From a virus (Duplodnaviria; Caudoviricetes), in the IMG/VR virus record IMGVR_UViG_3300031953_000001: 64,000 nucleotides of DNA; one strand, 5' to 3'. Each line of letters starts with the position of its first letter. Within the stretch, counting starts at the first letter, position 1. A program made the translations under genes and the position numbers. Positions 35,738 to 57,273 of the stretch are shown in pieces. Below the pieces are notes generated by a model that was not told the origin of the DNA, searched no databases, and worked only from the letters and a program-made list of their open reading frames with translations.

Positions 35738-36019
35738 ATGCCAAGATACACATTTAGAACTGAAGGTCCTTTCGTCGGCGAGAAAGAACGCGTTGAAACG
35801 TTGGTTCAAGAACTGGGGTTATCCATCGTTAAACATTGGGTGGAGTACGATAGACGAGATTGGGCGTTGGATTTCTTTACCGTTGAAACTGAAATCGATG
35901 ACGTTGAGGTCCTTCGTGCTAAGATGACCGAACTGATCCTTAACGACCCTCGGTTTGAAGATCTGCATCGGTGTGAACAAACCCTTAATCCCGGAGATGC
36001 GGTTAAAGACCCATTTTAG
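35738..36019 (+). CDS. hypothetical protein, paralog of 36912-37250
   Basis: YTFRTEGP...FTVETE...DLHRCEQTLNPG. Confidence 0.7.
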   Translation: MPRYTFRTEGPFVGEKERVETLVQELGLSIVKHWVEYDRRDWALDFFTVETEIDDVEVLRAKMTELILNDPRFEDLHRCEQTLNPGDAVKDPF

Positions 36020-36033
36020 ACAACGTCCAAGTA

Positions 36034-36873
36034 ATGGAGAATATCACTATGGTTAGATCAACACCTGCACTTACCGACGAACAGAAAATCGACGATTTGT
36101 GGTACGACTTAAATATCCTCGGATTTAAAGACATGCGACGTTGCTGCATTAGAGACTTGGCCGCTCTACGTGGATCTATCGAAGCTGTGATCACCACAAC
36201 GGAAGTCCAACTTATACTGATGGACGGCGTTGGTAAGAAGACGATGCGAGAAATTAAAGATCTGGTAACCAGCGTTAGATTCCGCCAAAACATCCTCGAC
36301 GCCAAACTTCAGGGGGTGTTGAGGACCTCGGTGTCGGACAAATTCATCCAGAAAGCGATTAACGAAAGGCGTGGTATGAGCGAACGCAAGCGGCAGGCGT
36401 TAGGCATCACGGCAAGTCCCAGGTCGATGGTGGATGCGATCATGCTTCGTAAAGACATCTACGAAAAGCACGGTATGCCGGATTATAAGACGATCGGTTC
36501 AGCCGGCATTGATCTGCGCGCCTGCATTGATGAATCCATCGTGTTGGCCCCAGGCGAGGTCAAAATGATCGGCTCTGGGTTAAAGATCCACGTTCAAGAC
36601 CCTAACTATGCGGCTATCCTCCTGCCTCGCTCAGGACTGGGTGCCAAGCACGGCATTGTACTGGGCAACCTGGTGGGTCTGATTGACTCGGACTATCAAG
36701 GTGAGATGGGCATGTCGATCTGGAACCGCAGCGATAAGGAGTACTTGATCGAGCCTGGAGACCGCATTGCTCAACTGGTGGTCATCAAGGTCGAGCAAAT
36801 CGTATTAAGTTGGGTGGATAAGTTTGAATCCACTGAGCGCGGTTCCGCTGGGTTTGGCTCTACTGGGGTTTAA
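36034..36873 (+). CDS. dut: trimeric dUTPase with an N-terminal RNAP alpha-CTD-like extension
   Basis: Motifs GSAGIDL, PRSGLG, GLIDSDYQGE, RIAQLV, RGSAGFGSTG; about 130 aa N-terminal extension. Confidence 0.9.
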   Translation: MENITMVRSTPALTDEQKIDDLWYDLNILGFKDMRRCCIRDLAALRGSIEAVITTTEVQLILMDGVGKKTMREIKDLVTSVRFRQNILDAKLQGVLRTSVSDKFIQKAINERRGMSERKRQALGITASPRSMVDAIMLRKDIYEKHGMPDYKTIGSAGIDLRACIDESIVLAPGEVKMIGSGLKIHVQDPNYAAILLPRSGLGAKHGIVLGNLVGLIDSDYQGEMGMSIWNRSDKEYLIEPGDRIAQLVVIKVEQIVLSWVDKFESTERGSAGFGSTGV

Positions 36874-36911
36874 CCCATCGCCATTGGGGACTCATGTCCC
36901 CTTTTTTTATC

Positions 36912-37250
36912 GGAGTAAGCATGTTCGTATATACGTTTTGTACCGAAGGGCCCGGCGACGGTCCTAGGGCTGAGAAGTTAATCCACGCGTTGAACCTAAA
37001 GACGGTGAACCACTGGCAGGTGGAGAACCCGATGGGGTACTTTTTGAGTGTCTTTACAGTGGAGACCGACGCGCTTCTCGAAGACCTGCGTGATCGAATG
37101 GCCGCTTTGATCCTTAGAGACACAGCCGCATGTCTGGCAGGGGAAGATTACAGACTCCTACCTTTTGTCGATCTCCATCAGTGCGCCCAGACGTTAAACC
37201 GCGGTATAAAACCCAAATGGCCTTACGACGACCCTGCGAGTGAGGATTAA
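36912..37250 (+). CDS. hypothetical protein, paralog of 35738-36019
   Basis: YTFCTEGP...FTVETD...DLHQCAQTLNRG; GGAG RBS before GTA-AGC-ATG, likely start ATG 36921. Confidence 0.65.
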   Translation, partial: GVSMFVYTFCTEGPGDGPRAEKLIHALNLKTVNHWQVENPMGYFLSVFTVETDALLEDLRDRMAALILRDTAACLAGEDYRLLPFVDLHQCAQTLNRGIKPKWPYDDPASED

Positions 37251-37330
37251 AGTCATGAATAAGAAAACTTTTATCAAAAAGTATTTTGAGTTCTTAGAGC
37301 AGTTGGGGTTGAGAGCTTCAACCGACGATC
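37228..37330 (+). repeat. direct repeat, copy 1 (copy 2 at 37553-37709)
   Basis: ACGACCCTGCGAGTGAGGA...AATAAGAAA..TTTATCAAAAAGTATTTTGAGTTCTTAGAGCAGT shared between the copies. Confidence 0.85.
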
Positions 37331-37575
37331 GGGCGAAAGCCAAGGAAGTCGTGGAACGGCTATACCGTAACTACCCAAAAGAACCGCCGTCGCCTGCTGT
37401 CCTGGAATCCTTAAAGAAGTATGCGCCTGAGGCCAGTGATGAGGAAGCTCATGCAGGTACGACCGACGACCAGCACCGATCGCCCATGTCGGTTCGAGAG
37501 TCTCTGGCTAATGAACCGACATTCGCTGGCTTGTCGATAGCGACCGGTGACTACGACCCTGCGAGTGAGGAATAG
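37255..37575 (+). CDS. hypothetical protein with an N-terminus duplicated from the nucleotidyltransferase gene
   Basis: MNKKTFIKKYFEFLEQLGLRASTDD; GAGGA RBS. Confidence 0.6.
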   Translation: MNKKTFIKKYFEFLEQLGLRASTDDRAKAKEVVERLYRNYPKEPPSPAVLESLKKYAPEASDEEAHAGTTDDQHRSPMSVRESLANEPTFAGLSIATGDYDPASEE

Positions 37576-37579
37576 CACC

Positions 37580-38014
37580 GTGAATAAGAAAGCCTTTATC
37601 AAAAAGTATTTTGAGTTCTTAGAGCAGTCTGGCCTGTCTGCTAATCGGGTTCGAGTATCTTACGGAGGCGCTCTGTTGATGTTGGGGCTGAGAACCTCAA
37701 CCGACGATCTGGATTTAGACATCCCTAAAGAGTCCTATGAGCATTTGGTCACCACCCACAAACTTAAACGAGAAATGCGCAAAGTTGGTGAGTGCGCCAA
37801 CTGGAATCGCGACGTTAGTCTAAAAGCGGACGGCGATCTGAGTAAAGGCGTATTCATTGACGGCGTTTGGGTGGATACGCCAGAAGACGTACTCCGGAGA
37901 AAGAAAGCTCTCAATCGACCAAAAGATCAAGAAGATATTGTGAAGCTTACACGTCTGATTGAATACAACACGCCAACATCGCCGAAGAAATCTCGTAGTT
38001 GGGTGAACTGGTAG
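37580..38014 (+). CDS. minimal pol-beta superfamily nucleotidyltransferase (AbiEii/DUF6036-like)
   Basis: GGALLMLGLRTSTDDLDL (GG...DxD) and KKALNRPKDQEDI (K..R.KD..D); GTG start with GAGGA RBS. Confidence 0.75.
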   Translation: MNKKAFIKKYFEFLEQSGLSANRVRVSYGGALLMLGLRTSTDDLDLDIPKESYEHLVTTHKLKREMRKVGECANWNRDVSLKADGDLSKGVFIDGVWVDTPEDVLRRKKALNRPKDQEDIVKLTRLIEYNTPTSPKKSRSWVNW

Positions 38015-38036
38015 ACAGTAATAAGGGTAGTTGATT

Positions 38037-38195
38037 ATGGACAAGTCTAATGTTGAGAAAAAGATCGAAGCACAGCGGGAGCAGTTTAAGGCACAAACCA
38101 AACAGACCGACCAGGCCTTTGACGCTCTGATTAAATCCTACCCCGACCCTCAAAAGGCCTTGTCCTACCTGAAAGGACGGTTGAACATTCGGTAG
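38037..38195 (+). CDS. small hypothetical protein (52 aa, not in the ORF track)
   Basis: ATG 38037 after AAGGG, TAG 38193-38195; fills the intergenic gap. Confidence 0.55.
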   Translation: MDKSNVEKKIEAQREQFKAQTKQTDQAFDALIKSYPDPQKALSYLKGRLNIR

Positions 38196-38225
38196 TGATA
38201 GGAACTAACAGCTAAAGGACCGATT

Positions 38226-38654
38226 ATGAAACGTCTATTAAAAACCGCATTAACCTCAACGGCGGCGGTTGTCCTTATTGTCGGAAACCCTGAGAAGATG
38301 AAAGGCCAAGAGAAGTTGGCCGGCGCTTACTACCGGGCCATTACCGACTTCGTTGAATCGCAAGGCTTTGCGGTTAAAGTCGACCCAGGCGAACCCAAGA
38401 CGTGTCCAGACATGAGTGCAGCGTTCTGGATAGCGCACAGCCGTGGGGTGGATCGCATTCGATGCATCGATCCTAAGGATCAATGGCGGTTTTTAAAGTT
38501 AGGTGACCCAGACGGCGTTATCCACCCGGTCGACGCTAAATGGCAGGCTGGAATCACCGATCACCGAGGCTCTAAGGAGATGCCCCCCAAGGAACACTTT
38601 GAATTCACTGAGAATCAGAAGCAAGCAATTGTGGATCTGATCAAAAAACTATAA
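38226..38654 (+). CDS. hypothetical protein, possible minimal alpha/beta-hydrolase fold
   Basis: VVLIVGNP...WIAHSRG resembles a nucleophile elbow. Confidence 0.55.
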   Translation: MKRLLKTALTSTAAVVLIVGNPEKMKGQEKLAGAYYRAITDFVESQGFAVKVDPGEPKTCPDMSAAFWIAHSRGVDRIRCIDPKDQWRFLKLGDPDGVIHPVDAKWQAGITDHRGSKEMPPKEHFEFTENQKQAIVDLIKKL

Positions 38655-38741
38655 GGTAAGGAATACCGAAGTAGGTCGTTATTCCCTTAACTGAAGTAAA
38701 ACCAATTTTAAAACCCGCTCCTAACCACAAAGAGACATGCT

Positions 38742-39239
38742 ATGAACCTATTGATCATTGGCCATCGACAACACGGTAAGACCGACGTTGGTAAAACGCT
38801 GGCGGATCGGTTGGCCACCAAAGCTCACGATTCGTCCTGGTTCATGGCCGAGCGAGTCGTTTACCCGGCCCTTAAAGTTGAGTGCGGCTATTCGAGCGTT
38901 GAGGACTGTTACGCCGACCGAGGCCGCCACCGTCAGGCGTGGTTTGAGTTGATCGAAGCGTACAACGACGAACCCGACCGTCTGACTCGGGCTATCTTAA
39001 GCGAAGGCACCATCTACATTGGGATGCGCTCTCGCATGGAGTTTGAAGGCTCCAAGCAGCACTTTGATGCGGTGATCTGGGTAGACGGCTCAGAACGAGT
39101 GTCTGAGGAACCGGCCACATCCATGAAGTTAACGCCTGCCGATGCCGATTATGTCATTAACAACAACGGCACGGTTGACGAGCTTCCGGCTCAGATCGAA
39201 CGATTATTACTCTGGTTAAACGAGATACAGTATGAATAA
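38742..39239 (+). CDS. P-loop deoxynucleoside monophosphate kinase-like protein
   Basis: LLIIGHRQHGKTDV, IYIGMRSRMEF, ADYVINNNGTVDEL. Confidence 0.75.
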   Translation: MNLLIIGHRQHGKTDVGKTLADRLATKAHDSSWFMAERVVYPALKVECGYSSVEDCYADRGRHRQAWFELIEAYNDEPDRLTRAILSEGTIYIGMRSRMEFEGSKQHFDAVIWVDGSERVSEEPATSMKLTPADADYVINNNGTVDELPAQIERLLLWLNEIQYE

Positions 39240-39414
39240 ACTGTCTGTTATTTTAGACGCACTGGAAGCCAACGGCATACGTGTTGTGCCACCCCCGCCC
39301 ATAAAACAATCCAAACACAAGCCACCGACGGAAGAGCAGGAACGTCTGAAACTCGAAGCGCAACGCAAACGCGAGCGTCGGGCTCAGAAACGCCGCCGCG
39401 CCAGCACTCGGTAA
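39232..39414 (+). CDS. small basic protein
   Basis: 60 aa, overlaps the previous stop, Arg/Lys-rich C-terminus. Confidence 0.5.
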   Translation: MNKLSVILDALEANGIRVVPPPPIKQSKHKPPTEEQERLKLEAQRKRERRAQKRRRASTR

Positions 39415-39612
39415 GAAGACTCACATTAATCCAATAGATGAGAAGGAAGTGATACGTGTACGCTACTGGCAGTATCTTAACCATGCCCCGGATAATAATC
39501 CTTCTGGTTGCTTTGATTAAGATCAGTGAATTCACTGAGTCCAAATCTTACGTAAGGCAAACCTCTTTGGCCGATACGGAAATTCAACTCACCCACTCGA
39601 CCGAGGTACTTC

Positions 39613-39825
39613 ATGTCTCCAGATAGACCCCAAGTCGACTTAGACAACACCGGGATGGACGAACGCACCATCGAAAAACGCTACGCGGCCCTGATGGGTA
39701 AAAAGAAGTCCAAGCTGGATCGAACCCAGACGGATGAGAACGCCCTTCAGGACGCTCAGGAGAAACGTCGATTAAAGGCGCGTAAACGTCTAGCCCAAAC
39801 TGCAACGGTCGCTCAGAGTGTTTAG
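39613..39825 (+). CDS. small basic helical protein
   Basis: 70 aa, GAGG RBS. Confidence 0.55.
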   Translation: MSPDRPQVDLDNTGMDERTIEKRYAALMGKKKSKLDRTQTDENALQDAQEKRRLKARKRLAQTATVAQSV

Positions 39826-40291
39826 AACCTGCTTCTACGCGATCTTTGTCTTTGCGTTGCTGTGTCTGGGTGCCCCTGTGGCCTCAGCCGACACCCGCTG
39901 GACAATCAATCCGAACCACATCGCCCGCTATTACGACGGCGATACGTTCTACGTAAATCTGCCCGGACTGCCGGTGGTCTTCGGAGAGGAGCTGCCAATC
40001 CGACTGCTGAACATCGACACTCCTGAATTGCGCAGTCGCTGTAAAGACCCAGATATAAAACTTCAAGAGAAAGCCCTGGCTCGTGAGGCTCGGGATTACC
40101 TTATCCAACAGTTGGAGCAAGCGCAGGTTATTCGCATCCAAGATCTGGAGCGGGGCAGTTTCTTTCGAGTGGTGGCCAACGTGTACATTGACGACGTTTG
40201 GCTCAACGCTCAGATGGTGGAAGCCGGCTACGCGGTAGACGTCTTTGATGGTAAGAGTGCCGACTGGTGTGAGTTGCTGATCGGACAATAA
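39818..40291 (+). CDS. thermonuclease (SNase) family nuclease with signal peptide
   Basis: YDGDTF, IRLLNIDTPE, RVVANVY, LNAQMVEAGYA; hydrophobic N-terminus ending ASA. Confidence 0.9.
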   Translation: MFRTCFYAIFVFALLCLGAPVASADTRWTINPNHIARYYDGDTFYVNLPGLPVVFGEELPIRLLNIDTPELRSRCKDPDIKLQEKALAREARDYLIQQLEQAQVIRIQDLERGSFFRVVANVYIDDVWLNAQMVEAGYAVDVFDGKSADWCELLIGQ

Positions 40292-40292
40292 A

Positions 40293-40328
40293 CGGCATAA
40301 GGGAAGGGCCGTGGCCCTTCCCTATGTC
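40293..40328. terminator. bidirectional terminator
   Basis: CGGCATA-AGGGAAGGGCC-gt-GGCCCTTCCC-TATGTC. Confidence 0.8.
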
Positions 40329-40332
40329 TGCC

Positions 40333-40563
40333 TCAAACGTAGTAACCGCCAACGTCCGCTGTCCCGCGATTGTCTACGGGTTCCACGTCGCGATCTTGAG
40401 ACGACGCAATCACGTTCCCTTTTGCCAACCACTGTTCCACGTCAAGTGCTAGCTCAGCGCGTAAAGCCGGTTTGTTCCACGCTTGGGTCTTGATGTGCCG
40501 GATCGTGTCGTTTGAAGGAGTCTCCAGGTCCTGATCCGAGCCGCTGTTGTTTGACAGTACCAT
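40333..40563 (-). CDS. small protein with a SutA-like motif
   Basis: RAELALDVEQWLAKGNVI; own ATGGTATG motif upstream and terminator downstream. Confidence 0.55.
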   Translation of the reverse strand: MVLSNNSGSDQDLETPSNDTIRHIKTQAWNKPALRAELALDVEQWLAKGNVIASSQDRDVEPVDNRGTADVGGYYV

Positions 40564-40607
40564 CTTCTACGTTCCCATGTTAGGTTTGTGTGTAACACTC
40601 AGTGTGC

Positions 40608-40615
40608 CATACCAT
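40608..40615 (-). promoter_or_regulatory. putative late promoter core ATGGTATG
   Basis: CATACCAT on + strand, 45 nt upstream of the minus-strand ORF. Confidence 0.5.
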
Positions 40616-40673
40616 GAGAACAACAATTCCATCCAGTCATCTATTGTCGAAATAATGCGTGGACTATAAACCG

Positions 40674-40704
40674 AGGTAGGACCTAGGTCCTACCTTTTAT
40701 GCCC
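40674..40704 (+). terminator. hairpin with TATGCCC tail
   Basis: AGGTAGGACC-ta-GGTCCTACCT-tt-TATGCCC. Confidence 0.65.
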
Positions 40705-40768
40705 CTTTAGTCGTTAATCTAGACACCACAGCCACTTATTTTGACCCACGGCCCCTTTGGAGGTTCTT

Positions 40769-41323
40769 ATGTTTAGTTACAAGGCACAGCTTGAAGAGCT
40801 AAAGTCTACGTTGGACAAACTTCAACACGAGATTGAAATTCGGTTGAACGTCGGGGAAGACCCCGGTGAGGTGTGCATCGATCTGCGTCACACGCTAAAA
40901 GGTCTGTCTAAGGAAAAGGTGTTTGACATACACACGCATCTGCCAGCGTCAGAAGAGAAGTTCGAGCGAGTGTTGGCGGCGTTGTTGCACGACGCGTTAG
41001 GACGCCACTGCGTAGACATCGGTGTGCTTAACGACAACACTCAACTGCTTGAAGCATTGTACACCCGTTGTCCGGAGTGGGATACCGTTGCCTGGGACGC
41101 CGACCTGGCTCGAAAGAGCATCAACTCTTTGTCTATCGCCCACCTGATCCGCCACTTAACGCTTAAAGACAGAGTTTTCTATCGGGTCAGTTTGATGGCT
41201 TCCCAAACCCACGACCCGAGGATTGACGTCATTGCAGAACATGAGCCGCACTTGAAACGCATCGTCATATTTGGTCTTGAAGTCATCGGTCGAGAACTTC
41301 CATCATTCATTAAAACCTCGTAA
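40769..41323 (+). CDS. hypothetical protein
   Basis: ATG 40769 after GGAGG. Confidence 0.7.
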   Translation: MFSYKAQLEELKSTLDKLQHEIEIRLNVGEDPGEVCIDLRHTLKGLSKEKVFDIHTHLPASEEKFERVLAALLHDALGRHCVDIGVLNDNTQLLEALYTRCPEWDTVAWDADLARKSINSLSIAHLIRHLTLKDRVFYRVSLMASQTHDPRIDVIAEHEPHLKRIVIFGLEVIGRELPSFIKTS

Positions 41324-41351
41324 AATACCCCCCCCCCATAAGGAAACCTGT

Positions 41352-41813
41352 ATGAATCACTTAGACGCTGATGCAATCGGTGAACTGGAATCTCAAATGA
41401 CGACTGTCGTCAATACCGTTGTCTCTACCCTAGTGGCGGAAAATAAAGACTTCGCTCACTCTGTGGGTACCGAGATGATGGAGCTATTGATGGAGCGGTT
41501 CCAACACAGTCGACCCCGACCGGCTGCAAAGGCAACGGGACTTGATTTCATGTCGTCTGTCTTTCGAGTAGGTCAGATCAAAGCCCTACTCGAAGACACC
41601 CCCGACGATCGCTTGGTCTTGTGTCAGATCGTAGGAGACAAGTCTGGTGTGTGCAACGCCTTTGTAGACATGGGGATGCTGAAGAAAGGCGATGGCCCTA
41701 TGATGATCACAGTCGGTCATCCTGAGATAGCCCACTTAACCGGCACCGCCGACTACACCGAGCGGAACACGATAATTAATGGGATGGTCGAGCAGTTAAA
41801 TAGACTGAGGTAA
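41352..41813 (+). CDS. hypothetical protein
   Basis: ATG 41352 after AAGGA. Confidence 0.7.
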   Translation: MNHLDADAIGELESQMTTVVNTVVSTLVAENKDFAHSVGTEMMELLMERFQHSRPRPAAKATGLDFMSSVFRVGQIKALLEDTPDDRLVLCQIVGDKSGVCNAFVDMGMLKKGDGPMMITVGHPEIAHLTGTADYTERNTIINGMVEQLNRLR

Positions 41814-41829
41814 AGGTCGGTGCGATTTA

Positions 41830-41858
41830 AAGGGGACCTTAGGGTCCTCTTATTTTTT
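41830..41858 (+). terminator. intrinsic terminator
   Basis: AAGGGGACC-ttag-GGTCCTCTT followed by a T tract. Confidence 0.75.
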
Positions 41859-41907
41859 GACTGCACTGAACGATTCTATACTCACCTCCCTTCTTGGAGA
41901 CTCGCTC

Positions 41908-42330
41908 ATGACCAACGTTCTTCCATTCAAACCCAAGACCTCCACCGACAACGACGTGGATCGGTTCTTAGAGTTCGCACACGGGTTGATCTTCGACGCC
42001 CGGCCCTCAACTGATCGTATGGACTTTACCATGGGTACCGTGACAGTGAGCGCGCAGAATATTCTCCGCAGCTACGAAGAACAACACTGGAAACACTTTA
42101 TTGAAGATAAGATCATGGCTGCCAGCGGATTGACGTCCTTGATGATGGCCACCCCAGACATAACCCGTACTGAACTGTTTGATGTCGCGGCTGTAGACGT
42201 TCAACTGTGGAGTAAAATCCCACACCTAGAACACTTCATCACCGCCAGCAATTGTGAGTTTGAATACAACTTTCGCACCGTCAATTACGACCTTGCTCAA
42301 ATCGCGTTTCAGATCCAACGTGGCGATTAA
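41908..42330 (+). CDS. hypothetical protein
   Basis: ATG 41908 after GGAG; MTNVLPFKPK start. Confidence 0.65.
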   Translation: MTNVLPFKPKTSTDNDVDRFLEFAHGLIFDARPSTDRMDFTMGTVTVSAQNILRSYEEQHWKHFIEDKIMAASGLTSLMMATPDITRTELFDVAAVDVQLWSKIPHLEHFITASNCEFEYNFRTVNYDLAQIAFQIQRGD

Positions 42331-42367
42331 GTTCAGTAAAGACACCGTCACTTATTAGGAGCATTGA

Positions 42368-42931
42368 ATGGCCAAGGCATCAGCGGGCATGTCGAAGTAC
42401 GCGCACAAGGTTAGAAAACCATATCCAACGTTGTATCACATTTCGTTTAACGAAGAGCTACAGGGCGTCTGGCAACCGAAGTCTCCAGATGGGGATTACG
42501 ACGACAGTGGCGATGACGCCCTTTATGGAGAACCAACCACCCCCCGCATTTCACTTTCGCCGTCAGTGGAACAAGCCTTTCAAGCGGTGTACGCCAACGT
42601 AAAGCATTTATTCGACAAGTACCCTTATTTGATTTTCTTTGTGTATCAGCCAGTCTTTAAAGGAACGGAAAGAATCGTTGATCCAGGTCAGTTTTCCAAA
42701 CACCGCCTGGTTCACGATGCCCACATCACCGAAGAACACTCAGTTCTAGATCCTTTAAAGATGGCGTTATTGTCCAGAGTTAAAATACATAAACCAAACG
42801 ATAAGAATAGAGTCAACTATTACGCGTTTAACGTTAAGGCGAACGAGTATTACGGTTGGCTCCCTGGGCAAATTAATGCCGAATGGATGTCTTTAGAGTC
42901 ACGGTCATCCGTGGCGTGGTTAAACTGGTAA
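42368..42931 (+). CDS. putative ADP-ribosyltransferase-fold protein
   Basis: LYHIS...PRISLSPSVEQA...DAHITEEH pattern (H, SxS, E). Confidence 0.5.
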   Translation: MAKASAGMSKYAHKVRKPYPTLYHISFNEELQGVWQPKSPDGDYDDSGDDALYGEPTTPRISLSPSVEQAFQAVYANVKHLFDKYPYLIFFVYQPVFKGTERIVDPGQFSKHRLVHDAHITEEHSVLDPLKMALLSRVKIHKPNDKNRVNYYAFNVKANEYYGWLPGQINAEWMSLESRSSVAWLNW

Positions 42932-43489
42932 ATGGAGAGTAACATGGTTAAGACACCTTGGGACCCGGAGTTCACTCCGAGTTACACACCCAAAGAGATG
43001 CTTGAGTTAGGTGTGTTCGAAGGTAAGTACATCAACGCTTTATCTGGTTTACCCCCCGCCTGGTACAAACTGCCTAAAGTACTGGGACCCAAAGACGAGC
43101 CCGATGCCACCATCGATCACTTTGGGGTCAAGTCCCGCCAGCCGCTGTCGGAGTGGAAGAAGAAAGGATGGACAACGGACTTGTCTCCTTATGGCTGGTT
43201 TCAGTGGTATTGCCTGTATTGGACGGGGCGTAGGAACGACAAAGAAGACACGCTTCAGATCGGCCGGTGGAAAAGTTTTATAGCACGTCACCAAGGGCAA
43301 GTCGACGCTAAGTGTACGCCTAAGGATCGGACGTGCAACACCCGCCAACGCCAGGGATTGTTACAATGGGCCTGGGACTCAGCAACGTCGTTTACCGAAG
43401 CCCAACGCAAAGCCAACCTGTCTCGGTTAAAGAAGCGCCCTGAGGTCACGTTAGAAGACCGCCGTTCGCACTCGTATCTTAATTGGTGA
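42932..43489 (+). CDS. conserved Trp-rich hypothetical protein
   Basis: FTPSYTPKEMLELGVF, PYGWFQWYC.YW.GRR, QIGRWKSF, RQRQGLLQWAWD. Confidence 0.7.
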   Translation: MESNMVKTPWDPEFTPSYTPKEMLELGVFEGKYINALSGLPPAWYKLPKVLGPKDEPDATIDHFGVKSRQPLSEWKKKGWTTDLSPYGWFQWYCLYWTGRRNDKEDTLQIGRWKSFIARHQGQVDAKCTPKDRTCNTRQRQGLLQWAWDSATSFTEAQRKANLSRLKKRPEVTLEDRRSHSYLNW

Positions 43490-43494
43490 TCCTT

Positions 43495-43794
43495 ATGCCT
43501 AGAGCCGTGTCCGTTTTGAGACTCAGTATAACCCCTGACAACTTAGCCCGTCAGATCGTGATGGATGGGTTTGCCATGCAGAAGAAATACCCGTCTCGCC
43601 TTGTTGAAAGTGCGTTGCCCGTCCCCATCGCTAAGAACTGCCGCGGTCGATTGGCAGCAAAAAATGGTGTGTTTTTAGATCCGGAGTTCCATTCGCTGTT
43701 CGATAAAGCCATTCGACTGATTCAAACGTCGATCCCTACCCCACAAGAGATACCCGACGATGTCGAACTCACATGCAGTTGTGACCGAGGTTAG
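43495..43794 (+). CDS. hypothetical protein
   Basis: ATG 43495 just after the previous stop. Confidence 0.5.
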   Translation: MPRAVSVLRLSITPDNLARQIVMDGFAMQKKYPSRLVESALPVPIAKNCRGRLAAKNGVFLDPEFHSLFDKAIRLIQTSIPTPQEIPDDVELTCSCDRG

Positions 43795-43972
43795 AGGTGC
43801 TACCTCGACGCACACCTGCCCTAAGTGCGAAGGGCCTGCCACTTGCGCCATGGAGACGGGTAAGTCAATATCGGCCTGTTGGTGTTTGCAGTACTCCCCA
43901 GTACCTTTAACGCCTGACGCTGTAAGCGATCAATGCATGTGTCGGCGGTGTCTTCAGAGTCTGACGTCTTAA
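43760..43972 (+). CDS. cysteine-rich CWC-family small protein
   Basis: CPKC...C......CWC...CMCRRCL. Confidence 0.75.
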   Translation: MSNSHAVVTEVRGATSTHTCPKCEGPATCAMETGKSISACWCLQYSPVPLTPDAVSDQCMCRRCLQSLTS

Positions 43973-44045
43973 GTATAGCGGGGACACTCCTCGCTTTTTT
44001 TTGTCTCTATAGTTTGATTGAACACCTCACTTGGAGTAATTGCAG

Positions 44046-46085
44046 ATGCTTTCAAATATACGACGCGTGCTGGGGTCGATTGATATTCGGGAGAAGAACG
44101 ACGAGATCCACGTCAGTGGTATTCCAGCGAACATCATGGCCGGCGACATCGCGCGTATCTGGAAGACTTCCCGCATCAACACCTACATGTTCACGCAGCA
44201 AGGAAGAAGCAACTTCTCCTTCCCTAAGTTTTTTACGGTAGACGTGGTCTTTGCTTTGAACCGACTCAAGGAAGAGGCAAGAACGTACACCAGCCGGCGC
44301 GCCGCGGATAAGATCATTGCTGGCATTGAATTGATCACTTGGTTGTCATCCACCAAAGATGAACGTCCAGACATCCTGGATTTTCGAGAAGCCAAGCAAT
44401 TTAAGAAGACCATGTTGCCGCATCAGGACGAGTTCCTTAAGCAATACAACGACATAGTACCTCGCTATGAGTTAAACGGGTACATGTTAGCAGCGCCTCC
44501 TGGGGCCGGTAAGACCTTAACAGGGTTACTGCTACACGAGATGCTTAAGCACGACGTCGTGGTGTGTGTGGTCCCTAAGGTCTCTGTAGAGCGCGTCTGG
44601 GTGAAAGCTTTGCTGGAAGAGTACCGGCGTCCTAAAGAGAAGTACTGGGACTCGGTCACCAAAGGCGACATTGTTGATGGTCTTGATGCTTACGTGGTGC
44701 ATTACGAGTCGTTGAACAAGTTGCAAGAGATTGTGCCTTACCTACGCCGTAAACAGGTCACCGTGATTCTGGACGAATCGCACAACATGAATGAGATCGG
44801 CTCTCAGCGCACCGAGAACTTTGTCGAGTTCTGCAAAACCATAGGCGCAGAACACGTAGTCTGGTCCTCGGGCACACCGCTCAAAGCCATGGGGTCTGAG
44901 ATGATCCCGTTCTTGCGCACCACAGACAAGCATTTTAATTCCGGGGTGGAAGACCGGTTCAAGCGCATCTACGGCATGAGTGTGGCTCGGGCCAACGACA
45001 TTCTGTCTAATCGCCTGGGCATTGTCTCCTATCGGGTGGAGAAGTCCTTGGTGGTGCCGGGTGAGCCTTCTGAAGAGACGATCAAGATTCAGATACCCAA
45101 CGGGGACCATTACACCTTACGGGCTGTTGCCGAGCGGATGCGGGAGTTCATAGCGCAGCGGTTGGAGTATTACCGTGCCAACATGCCTGAGTTCAAGGAA
45201 ACGTATCGGCGCAGTTTGGATGTCTTTGCACAAACGCTGAAGACGCAACGTGAGCTGGATGAATTCCGCTTCTACGAACACAAGGTCAAGCAGATCCGAG
45301 CCACTAAGGATTACTCAACCGTCGCTGACATCATGATGGAGGCAAACCAATACGAACTTAAAACGATTCTTCCAGCTTTGCCTAACGAGCTGAGAAGTCC
45401 GTTTAAGAACGTCCGGTCCATCATTAAGTACGTTGACTTAAAAGTCCGGGGGGAAGCGCTGGGCAGTATCTTAGGTCGAGCTCGAATCGAGTGTCATACT
45501 GAGATGGTGCCGTATTCTGGGTTGCCTGACATCATTAAAACGGCGGCTAAGAAGACACTCATCTTCACCAGTTACGTTGACGTGGTGAAGACGGCAGACG
45601 CTTACTTGAAAACACAGGGTTTTAAACCAGCCACGGTGTTTGGGGAGACCAACAAGGACTTGGCTAGGATCATCGGCCAGGTAGATAAGGATGCAACCGT
45701 CAACCCACTACTGGCCACCTACGCCTCCTTATCAACGGCCATGCCTTTGGTGATGGCCAATGTGGTGGTGATGTTGAACCAACCCTTTAGATCTCACGAG
45801 CGCGAACAAGCAGTGGCGCGTGTGCATCGATTAGGACAAGACAGTCAGGTCTATTTCATCACCATCTTACTGGACACCGGCGATGAACCCAACGTCTCCA
45901 CTCGATCCTCTGACATTATGGAATGGTCCAAACGTCAGGTTGAGGAGATGATGGGGGTAAGAGGCGATGTGTCGTTGGAGGCGTACGGGGAGTTAAACGA
46001 CCCTGAGATCCAATTGATTCCTCACCTTGAGGAAATTGAGCAACTTCTGAATCCACCGGCAAACCGCCAGTGGCACACTTGGTAA
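44046..46085 (+). CDS. SF2 (SNF2-like) helicase
   Basis: Walker [17 protein letters not shown], motif [14 protein letters not shown]; GGAG RBS. Confidence 0.9.
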
Positions 46086-55110: not shown

Positions 55111-57273
55111 ATGTCTAAGAAAACGCGTTTTTCGAATGAATTGAGCGGTATCATCTCCAGTCTGGAAATGTCCCTTAACCACAACGGCATCGAAGTCACC
55201 GACGGTGTTGCTAAAGGAGCTTACTCTCAGGAGTCAGCACAAGACTTCAACCAACACTTTGACACACAGACTCAAGGTCTGCGTCAGATTGTTTCGGATG
55301 CGATGAGTGAGATCGATCCGGGCTTCTCCCAAGAAGCGATGAGTGCAGACATGAGCGAGCCTATGCGCGCTGGTCTGATTGCAGCCCTGGCTTCACGTAA
55401 AGGCGCAGCTCAGTACCACAAGCAAGCCCTGGCTTCCCAGAACAACGACCGCAACCTGTCCTTGGAATCTATTTTCAATGGCGTAGGCGGTGAAGTAAAC
55501 GTAGCCGAAGCCAACGCTTATTCTCAGGAATCGTTTGACGAAACTGAGCTGGCGAACTTTGCTGCACAGAACATCATGTACAACGTACTGGCCTCGCGTC
55601 AGGACCCGTTTGCAGAAGCGTTCTTCCCAACCAAGGTTGTGACTCCGGCTGAAGCTGGCATCAAGATCACCGTGGATCGTCAGGAAGTTCTGGACTACGC
55701 TCAACACAAGACTGACGGATCGTCTTTGGGTGAGAAGCGCTCCAACCTGATCGATGCCTTTGCCGATGCAAGCATCCTGAACCGTCCGGCTACCGAACTG
55801 GTACCCTGGGCTAAAGAAGACAACAGCAACGACGGTTACTTTGTTGCTAACGACGATGTTGCTGCACGCTCGGTTGAGTTGTCTGGCCATGCGGTACGCA
55901 CACGTCCGTTGAAGATGGGCAAGCGTGTTAACCTGCTGGGCATCTCTTCACACCCAGGTCTGATCGACAATGGCGTTCTGGACGTCACCGATCAAATCGC
56001 CAACGGCATGCGTTTGACCAACCTGTACGTTAAATTGGTCGACAGCACCGCCACACCGGCAACTGTTGAGATTGTGAAGTTGGGCGTGGGCAACATGACC
56101 CGCACTCAGTTCAAGAAATCCCACGAAGGCAAAGGCCGTGAAGTGGTACTGAACTTCATCTCCGACGCGGTGGTGATTGACAGTGCTAGCAAGACACCCG
56201 CCGGTGCTGCTCTGGCCCTGTTGGCCAGCCAAGTAGCTACCCCTGACCTGACCGTTCAACTGTCTCTGTCCGTTAGCGGCTCTGGCAACCTGAACGAAGG
56301 TACTGTGGACGTTCATTCTTCCCCGGTCCGTGTTGAGTCTGTGGTTGATTCTGACGGTTCTGTGTTGTCTCTGTCTGAAGGTGCTGGTAAGGCGGTTGTA
56401 GATCGTCTGGAAGCCCTGAGTGCATCTGTTATCGGTTACGACCTGAACGCACGTCGTTCTAACAGCAACTGGCGCTCTACCGGTGCCCTGATCGACGTAA
56501 CTCCGTACACCGAGAGCTACGCAATCGAGCCAGGCTACCCCATCAGCGTTCTGACGCCGACTGACGACACCCAGAATGGTGCCAAGATCTCTGGTATGGT
56601 TAACGCTGCGCGTATCCGCAACAGCAACAACGCCATCACCACTCTGATCAACTACGGCGAACAGCTGGAAGCGTATCAGCAAGCCATGCTGCGCGGCGTT
56701 AAGCTGGACATCGTGGGCGCTGGTCGTCACGTGGTTAAGCCGTTCTTCGCATCGGACAACCTAGACGTGGCTGCCCGTGTTACGTCCATCAGCTCGCATG
56801 AACGCGCTGAAGACGTGTCCATGGTTCTGGTTGATGCTATCCGTGACATGGCTTACCGCATGTACCGTGAAGCCAACTACGGCCCGGCTCTGGATCTGGC
56901 GAACGCCGGTACTCAGACCAAGCCTATCGTGCTGATCGGTTGTGATGCTGTGGTTCAGCGTTACCTGATGGTGTCTGGTGATGACCGTCTGCTGGGTGAG
57001 ATGGTGGATTACCGCATCGTGTCTACCAACGACACACGCATGACCGACAGCATCTACCTGACCTTCACTCGTGAGCGTCCAGGCAGTGAAGACGGTCTGA
57101 GCTTTGGTGTACACGCGTACATCCCAGAGCTGATCCAGCGTGTGACTACCAACCGTGGTGGTTCTACTGCTAAGAACGATCGTGTCGTTCCTCGCAGCAT
57201 CCACGTACCGGTACTGCCGGTTCTGGGTCACATCCGGGTTGTAGGACTGAAAGAAGCCATCACCAACACTTAA
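55111..57273 (+). CDS. major capsid protein (phiKZ gp120-like)
   Basis: 720 aa with S-x-E propeptide sites, FAEAFFPTKVVTP; strong codon bias; lies between DnaB and the RNAP beta gene. Confidence 0.9.
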   Translation: MSKKTRFSNELSGIISSLEMSLNHNGIEVTDGVAKGAYSQESAQDFNQHFDTQTQGLRQIVSDAMSEIDPGFSQEAMSADMSEPMRAGLIAALASRKGAAQYHKQALASQNNDRNLSLESIFNGVGGEVNVAEANAYSQESFDETELANFAAQNIMYNVLASRQDPFAEAFFPTKVVTPAEAGIKITVDRQEVLDYAQHKTDGSSLGEKRSNLIDAFADASILNRPATELVPWAKEDNSNDGYFVANDDVAARSVELSGHAVRTRPLKMGKRVNLLGISSHPGLIDNGVLDVTDQIANGMRLTNLYVKLVDSTATPATVEIVKLGVGNMTRTQFKKSHEGKGREVVLNFISDAVVIDSASKTPAGAALALLASQVATPDLTVQLSLSVSGSGNLNEGTVDVHSSPVRVESVVDSDGSVLSLSEGAGKAVVDRLEALSASVIGYDLNARRSNSNWRSTGALIDVTPYTESYAIEPGYPISVLTPTDDTQNGAKISGMVNAARIRNSNNAITTLINYGEQLEAYQQAMLRGVKLDIVGAGRHVVKPFFASDNLDVAARVTSISSHERAEDVSMVLVDAIRDMAYRMYREANYGPALDLANAGTQTKPIVLIGCDAVVQRYLMVSGDDRLLGEMVDYRIVSTNDTRMTDSIYLTFTRERPGSEDGLSFGVHAYIPELIQRVTTNRGGSTAKNDRVVPRSIHVPVLPVLGHIRVVGLKEAITNT

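Follow-up and report, generated by a model that had tools for sequence, protein, structure and literature searches.

A C-terminal tail ending in tryptophan as a probable prohead-targeting signal on the protease and unrelated enzymes of phiKZ-like phages

We analyzed a stretch of 64,000 nucleotides (the window) that forms part of the single-contig virus record IMGVR_UViG_3300031953_000001 (222,493 bp). Four proteins encoded in the window, namely a nucleotidyltransferase (NTase)-like protein, an ADP-ribosyltransferase (ART)-like protein, a Trp-rich protein and a helicase of the phiKZ gp203 family, end in a similar short tail with a terminal Trp. The Peptidase_S80 prohead protease, encoded elsewhere in the same genome, carries such a tail as well. 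An initial annotation of the window had proposed that the tail is an address label at the C-terminus, removable by cleavage, by which cargo enzymes are loaded into the prohead. Our data and published results support this idea: the tail of the S80 protease is conserved across its family, a truncated protease of phage SPN3US is absent from proheads, the gp203/gp131 helicases are packaged into heads and the tails are conserved in orthologs. We therefore consider it probable that the tail represents a portable, protease-removable C-terminal prohead-targeting signal. The sequences give it the consensus P-x-[aromatic/Ser]-[Leu/hydrophobic]-x-Trp-COOH, attached through a flexible linker and preceded by an S-x-E site.

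A crude gene call of the whole genome yielded 265 open reading frames (ORFs). Five of them end in [WY]xxW followed by a stop codon, while 0.18-0.22 such endings were expected (Poisson P = 1.2e-6). This genome-wide count had been suggested as a check by the initial annotation, which had described the tail in the window only. The four window genes it listed are all present with the endings it gave, the upstream S/T-L-E it reported for three of them is found in the ART-like protein (MSLE), the Trp-rich protein (VTLE) and the helicase (VSLE), and no further window ORF ends in W in the crude ORF call, as had been stated. The restriction to the window did not hold because the fifth tagged protein is the prohead protease, outside the window, and the tail is widespread in phiKZ-like phages. 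Each of the five tagged proteins falls into a family of its own or into no family (Pfam, PHROG), and in every case the tail occupies the extreme C-terminus. The codons used for the tail vary (TTA, CTT or TTG for Leu; AAC or AAT for Asn) and the last 15 nt are identical at only 5-10 of 15 positions. Thus, the likeness sits at the protein level, in agreement with the earlier claim. An S-x-E motif occurs within the last 40 residues of three of the five tagged proteins compared with 17% of the others (Fisher p = 0.04, weak taken alone). When S/T-x-E is considered, a site lies 10-34 residues upstream in four of the five and is kept in orthologs, and cleavage at this position is predicted.

The connection to the prohead is provided by the protease. 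Its S80 domain is recognized by PF20034 over residues 7-227 (E 1.1e-64) and by phrog_3014 (E 7e-64). The motif S-M-E225 is located 29 residues before the end of the protein; E225 is nearly invariant in an alignment of 82 sequences and marks the predicted autocleavage site. We used the protease as a query against 1.84 billion cluster representatives and analyzed the best 150 (clusters at 50% identity). Among these, 108/150 (72%) are W-terminal and another 25 have a W within the last four residues, at a Trp frequency of 1.3%. The logo of the tail reads P at position -6, any residue at -5, S/Y/F/W at -4, L/A/T at -3, N/K/R at -2 and W at -1, and the distance from the last [S/A/G]-x-E to the end of the protein has a median of 26 residues.

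C-terminal processing of such proteases has been demonstrated. SPN3US gp245 and phiKZ gp175 autocleave a C-terminal propeptide (PMC10052503, PMC5694885), which in SPN3US comprises the 64 C-terminal residues (PMC10052503). The product of the SPN3US 245(am66) mutant, which lacks the last 26 residues of the propeptide, is active in vitro and absent from proheads, and its authors proposed a role of the propeptide in directing the protease to the prohead core, without defining a motif (Reilly et al., PMC7411985). Since the truncated protease is active yet missing from proheads, the missing residues seem to serve localisation and not catalysis. SPN3US gp245 ends in ..GVRSW.

The second protein family to link the tail to the head is that of the helicase. 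The window helicase possesses the Pfam domains ResIII, Helicase_C and SNF2-rel_dom, is 37% identical to phiKZ gp203 (tblastn E 7.5e-147, residues 3-651 covered), which is annotated as a structural protein, and is 40% identical to gp131 of Erwinia phage RAY. It is thus homologous to known virion helicases: the gp203/gp131 family is packaged into heads, the phiKZ member is proteolytically processed, and RAY gp131 is virion-associated by mass spectrometry (MS) and localises with capsids. In the literature accessible to us, we found no targeting signal and no cleavage position described for gp203/gp131. Terminal W is present in 43 of 117 full-length helicase homologs (37%), where P is found at -6, S/W/Y at -4, L at -3 and S/N at -2. 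An [SAG]-x-E site lies no more than 60 residues away in every one of these 43 (median distance, 20 residues). Endings of helicase homologs include TWTNW and KWVNW, and RAY gp131 ends in ..KAFSW. Many helicases lacking the terminal W carry a different aromatic tail, and the phiKZ proteins themselves end in ..QPAYMRF (gp203) and ..RPGFMR (gp175).

Among the helicase clades without a terminal W we observed conserved endings such as ..WAQWATL/WAQWGTL, ..NYFFLF, ..NFFFDF and ..KSSLF. To judge from their sequences, these alternative aromatic endings may represent variants of the signal, each particular to its clade. A separate observation concerns the length of some helicase homologs. Several are 1,000-1,150 aa long and contain PF14528, a LAGLIDADG-type homing endonuclease domain (among them P0055, P0059, P0073, P0078, P0085, P0103 and P0119), which suggests intein insertions in the gp203-type virion helicase.

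The initial annotation had named lack of conservation in orthologs as a finding that would speak against its proposal. Instead, each of the four window proteins has orthologs in which the terminal W is retained. The NTase-like ortholog in L002 (74% identity) ends in ..KQHSWMNW. Terminal W is found in 11/19 ART-like orthologs (AWLEW, LWLRW, RWKHW, xSNNW, TWMGW). S-[LV]-E about 10 residues upstream is kept in most of the ART-like orthologs, and distant ones have neither the tail nor the site. The orthologs of the Trp-rich protein end in ..VSME/TTHAHPYLKW (L080, 61% identity) and ..VSTE/SVVSSRW (L019, 62% identity; slashes mark predicted cuts). In other genomes, different proteins bear the tail, and its sequence often follows a genome-specific 'house style'. 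In L034/L035, the protease ends in ..PLYHKW, an ART-like protein in ..PLYNKW and a 242-aa protein in ..PLYEQW; endings in G001 include ..SWFKW, ..KWMEW, ..GWLQW and ..AWYDW. The ends of phiKZ gp175 (..RPGFMR) and gp203 (..QPAYMRF) follow the same pattern. RAY gp18 (KU886224, 19233-20495), a 'putative membrane protein' encoded among virion structural genes, ends in ..SQSANLNW. This ending resembles the tail and makes gp18 a possible further tagged protein.

Could these tails be chance or convergent endings that lack a common function, such as ordinary structural caps? In favor of this, the tails are of short length and degenerate sequence, and some W-terminal proteins look unrelated to the motif (RAY gp45 and gp227 as well as several in G001). 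We nevertheless regard this explanation as very unlikely, given a P of about 1e-6 in this genome, the share of W-terminal sequences (72% of the protease clusters, 37% of the helicase homologs) compared with a Trp frequency of 1.3%, and the retention of the tail in orthologs of all four window proteins.

We propose the following mechanism for a prohead-targeting tail. The free tail would bind a conserved component of the assembling prohead, which could be the major capsid protein, the scaffold/core or the portal. Binding would bring the S80 protease into the particle and, in this lineage, also the gp203-type helicase and the ART-like, NTase-like and Trp-rich proteins. Once activated, the protease would cut after the S-x-E located 10-35 residues upstream, so that the enzymes become free inside the head and a small tail peptide is lost. 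The freed enzymes would remain with the DNA and would probably be ejected into the next host, as are Alt and the internal proteins of T4. We infer that the tails of the cargo act like that of the protease and undergo cleavage, and that the cargo is ejected.

The major capsid protein informs on the specificity of the protease. Its N-terminal 140 residues contain five S-x-E sites (SLE19, SQE41, SQE74, SLE119 and SQE140), and E140 is nearly invariant in 39 homologs. S-x-E in the capsid propeptide therefore fits the specificity of the protease, like the S/A/G-x-E of phiKZ. The capsid protein is also one candidate receptor of the tail. A complex prediction that combined the alignment of the phage's own capsid protein with the last 42 residues of the protease gave a score of 0.00, which counts neither for nor against binding.

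Alternatively, the tail might serve as a docking (exosite) motif through which the S80 protease is recruited to some of its substrates and which, on the protease itself, mediates autoinhibition or autocleavage in trans, while entry into the head would occur by other means. Indeed, [S/A/G]-x-E precedes nearly every tail at a tight distance (medians of 20-26 residues) and the protease removes its own tail. However, the main substrates, namely the capsid protein, the portal and the inner-body proteins, are cut without carrying such a tail, and the truncated SPN3US protease, shortened by 26 residues at its end, retains activity in vitro and is missing from proheads. We therefore consider a mere docking function unlikely.

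We also considered that the tail might bind a different hub of the infection cycle, such as a factor for import into the phage nucleus or for capsid docking, or that it might anchor proteins to a membrane or an early vesicle after ejection. The resemblance to the end of the protease would then be coincidental. Protein sorting is an issue for a phage that encodes a chimallin homolog, Trp-rich peptides at a terminus can be membrane-active, and both a helicase and a nucleotidyltransferase plausibly act on DNA. Yet the best-conserved tail sits on the prohead protease, which has no known role outside the prohead, and the gp203/gp131 helicases localise to capsids and not to the nucleus. Moreover, the upstream protease site would lead to removal of the tail prior to ejection. 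Taken together, a hub other than the prohead appears quite improbable to us. Interaction tails as found on partners of sliding clamps or on single-stranded DNA-binding (SSB-type) proteins, and degron tags, were rejected on general grounds because neither fits the logo and neither gives a reason for a tail on the prohead protease.

Several observations weigh against a prohead-targeting signal and have to be set beside the evidence above. In SPN3US, 13/14 mapped cuts take off N-terminal propeptides (PMC10052503). Most of the known head cargo of phiKZ-like phages, including inner-body proteins and the virion RNA polymerase, lacks the tail, and N-terminal propeptides are what the majority of it relies on. 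Of the five W-terminal proteins of RAY, the helicase and the protease have a virion annotation and the other three do not. Of the ART-like homologs, phiR1-37 g082 is annotated as structural and has no tail, and RAY gp71 has neither a tail nor a virion annotation. The NTase-like protein of the window has no S/A/G-x-E ahead of its tail, only L-I-E. Covariation between the tails of helicase and protease in nine genomes was borderline, with permutation p values of 0.05-0.07 when the last 3-4 residues were compared and 0.008 with the last 5, and it depended on anchors of our own choice. Finally, SPN3US has a W ending on its protease alone, and wider use of the tail is therefore lineage-specific. 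For the enrichment of W tails among proteins annotated as virion components by MS (SPN3US, RAY), the cases were too few for a test.

How does the tail compare with known systems? On the protease, it corresponds to the propeptide of SPN3US gp245 and phiKZ gp175. The protease of this genome belongs to the same family (PF20034), and its tail is likewise C-terminal and located behind an x-x-E, the predicted autocleavage site. In contrast to the published propeptide, for which no motif was given, the tail described here has a P-x-aromatic-h-x-W logo and is also found on unrelated proteins that are not proteases. The initial annotation had drawn a parallel to the capsid-targeting sequence (CTS) of T4. 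This parallel stands in so far as both are short shared peptides on unrelated proteins; it fails with respect to position. The T4 CTS is a short portable peptide found on unrelated cargo (IPI-III and Alt, an ADP-ribosyltransferase being among them) and removed by gp21. It is cut after Glu by a related prohead protease and its cargo is ejected with the DNA, whereas for the tail described here cleavage and ejection are predicted. The T4 CTS, by contrast, sits at the N-terminus; it comprises about 10-20 residues, differs in sequence from the Trp-terminated C-terminal tail and has the gp22 scaffold core as its target. Because of its C-terminal position, the tail would work like a CTS but fall outside the CTS class.

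In herpesviruses, the scaffold and the protease share a C-terminal tail that binds the capsid, and the protease clips it at the M site about 25 residues from the end. The fold of the herpesvirus protease is related to that of T4 gp21 and S80 (PMC5694885). A C-terminal encapsidation tail is also described for the HK97 protease in the account of Duda et al., 2013 given in PMC7411985. These C-terminal tails tether internal proteins to the shell, as the tail described here would do. There is no sequence similarity to the herpesvirus tail, which is shared through nested genes, whereas the tails described here would have been acquired independently on unrelated enzymes. By this comparison, the tail would most resemble the herpesvirus scaffold/protease tail with its M site and the C-terminal tail of the HK97 protease.

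Our search of the accessible literature brought up no account of the terminal-Trp motif, nor of the helicase and other enzymes carrying it as well. A targeting role of the protease propeptide has already been proposed in print. In the selection of the about 50 head proteins of phiKZ-like phages, nothing but long N-terminal propeptides and a vaguely defined 'C-terminal region of the protease' has so far been implicated. A short tail defined by its sequence would make the basis of this selection testable and would offer a handle on the receptor inside the prohead. It would further allow candidates for packaged and injected enzymes to be predicted from sequence in uncultured jumbo phages, as here for the ART-like and NTase-like proteins and the helicase, and it adds to the parallel that links S80/T4-type proteases with the protease-scaffold system of herpesviruses. 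We tentatively extend the idea to a general code, a possibility that we would not yet favor: phiKZ-like (chimallin-encoding) phages might share a portable C-terminal address of some 6-8 residues with a free Trp at its end, which would be read by one conserved prohead receptor, suffice to load any protein, be erased by the prohead protease and be freely used to recruit new injected effector enzymes.

Table 1. Tagged proteins and the major capsid protein. Positions refer to the window unless indicated; slashes mark predicted cuts.
Protein	Position	Strand	Length	C-terminal end	Tail	Family
NTase-like protein	37547..38014	+	155 aa	..KSRSWVNW	37994-38011	phrog_12854, function unknown
ART-like protein	42368..42931	+	187 aa	..MSLESRSSVAWLNW; ..MSLE/SRSSVAWLNW	42887-42928 (putative, cleavable)	phrog_10766
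Trp-rich protein, unassigned fold	42932..43489	+	185 aa	..VTLEDRRSHSYLNW; ..VTLE/DRRSHSYLNW	43445-43486	
SNF2/DEAD-like helicase, phiKZ gp203 family	44040..46085	+	681 aa	..VSLE/AYG..(34 aa)..NRQWHTW	45969-46082	phrog_62
Major capsid protein	55111..57273	+	720 aa			phrog_3231, E 5e-170; PF25620 in homologs
Peptidase_S80 prohead protease (phiKZ gp175-type)	G000:C1:40580-41344, outside the window	-		..S-M-E/SSGG..KHGYLEW		

The functions of the three small tagged proteins were assessed by family and fold searches. Pfam returned nothing for any of them at E values up to 10, and no Pfam or PHROG family was found for the Trp-rich protein. Atlas neighbours of the NTase-like protein are nucleotidyltransferase, DUF6036 and AbiEii-like proteins, so that its description as a minimal nucleotidyltransferase-like protein is only a lead. 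The AlphaFold2 (AF2) model of the ART-like protein reached a predicted local distance difference test (pLDDT) value of 86, and its fold matches, though weak (E of at least 0.07), were all ADP-ribosyltransferases. An ADP-ribosyltransferase fold is, on the basis of this model, likewise only a lead. The model of the Trp-rich protein, built from a 3-sequence alignment, had a pLDDT of 51 and was unusable for assigning a fold.

The genome codes for a phiKZ-type major capsid protein, a Peptidase_S80 prohead protease, a gp203-type helicase and a chimallin-type homolog. The latter is a 631-aa ORF (G000:C1 197901-199796) with 29.5% identity (E 3e-61) to a RAY ORF identified by gene order as chimallin gp222. 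Given these genes, the phage is a phiKZ-like jumbo phage and probably nucleus-forming. Protein identity to the nearest named relatives is below 50%, and closer relatives are metagenome contigs only, some of them marine. A megablast search of the region against the phage collection gave zero matches; the phage has no close sequenced relative within the collection searched.

The surroundings of the tagged genes show further features. Two small paralogous proteins (35738-36019 and 36894-37250; 41% identity, E 8e-19) are encoded on either side of a dUTPase gene (36034-36873), whose product of 279 aa is unusually long. Upstream of the NTase-like gene, an ORF of 111 aa (37240-37575) repeats the first approximately 30 residues of the NTase-like protein (NKKxFIKKYFEFLEQ..LGLRxSTDD; E 4e-10) and is devoid of its 18-residue stretch with the glycine motif. 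It appears to be either a tandem duplicate of part of the NTase-like gene or a copy that has decayed. The slot taken by the helicase in the window is filled by a gene for an internal head protein of about 490 aa in two syntenic relatives (L002:9317-10795 and L081:10934-12406), and the L002 gene carries PF12699 (phiKZ_IP). The stretch between the dUTPase gene and the dCTP deaminase-like gene seems, from its gene content, to be a variable head-cargo region.

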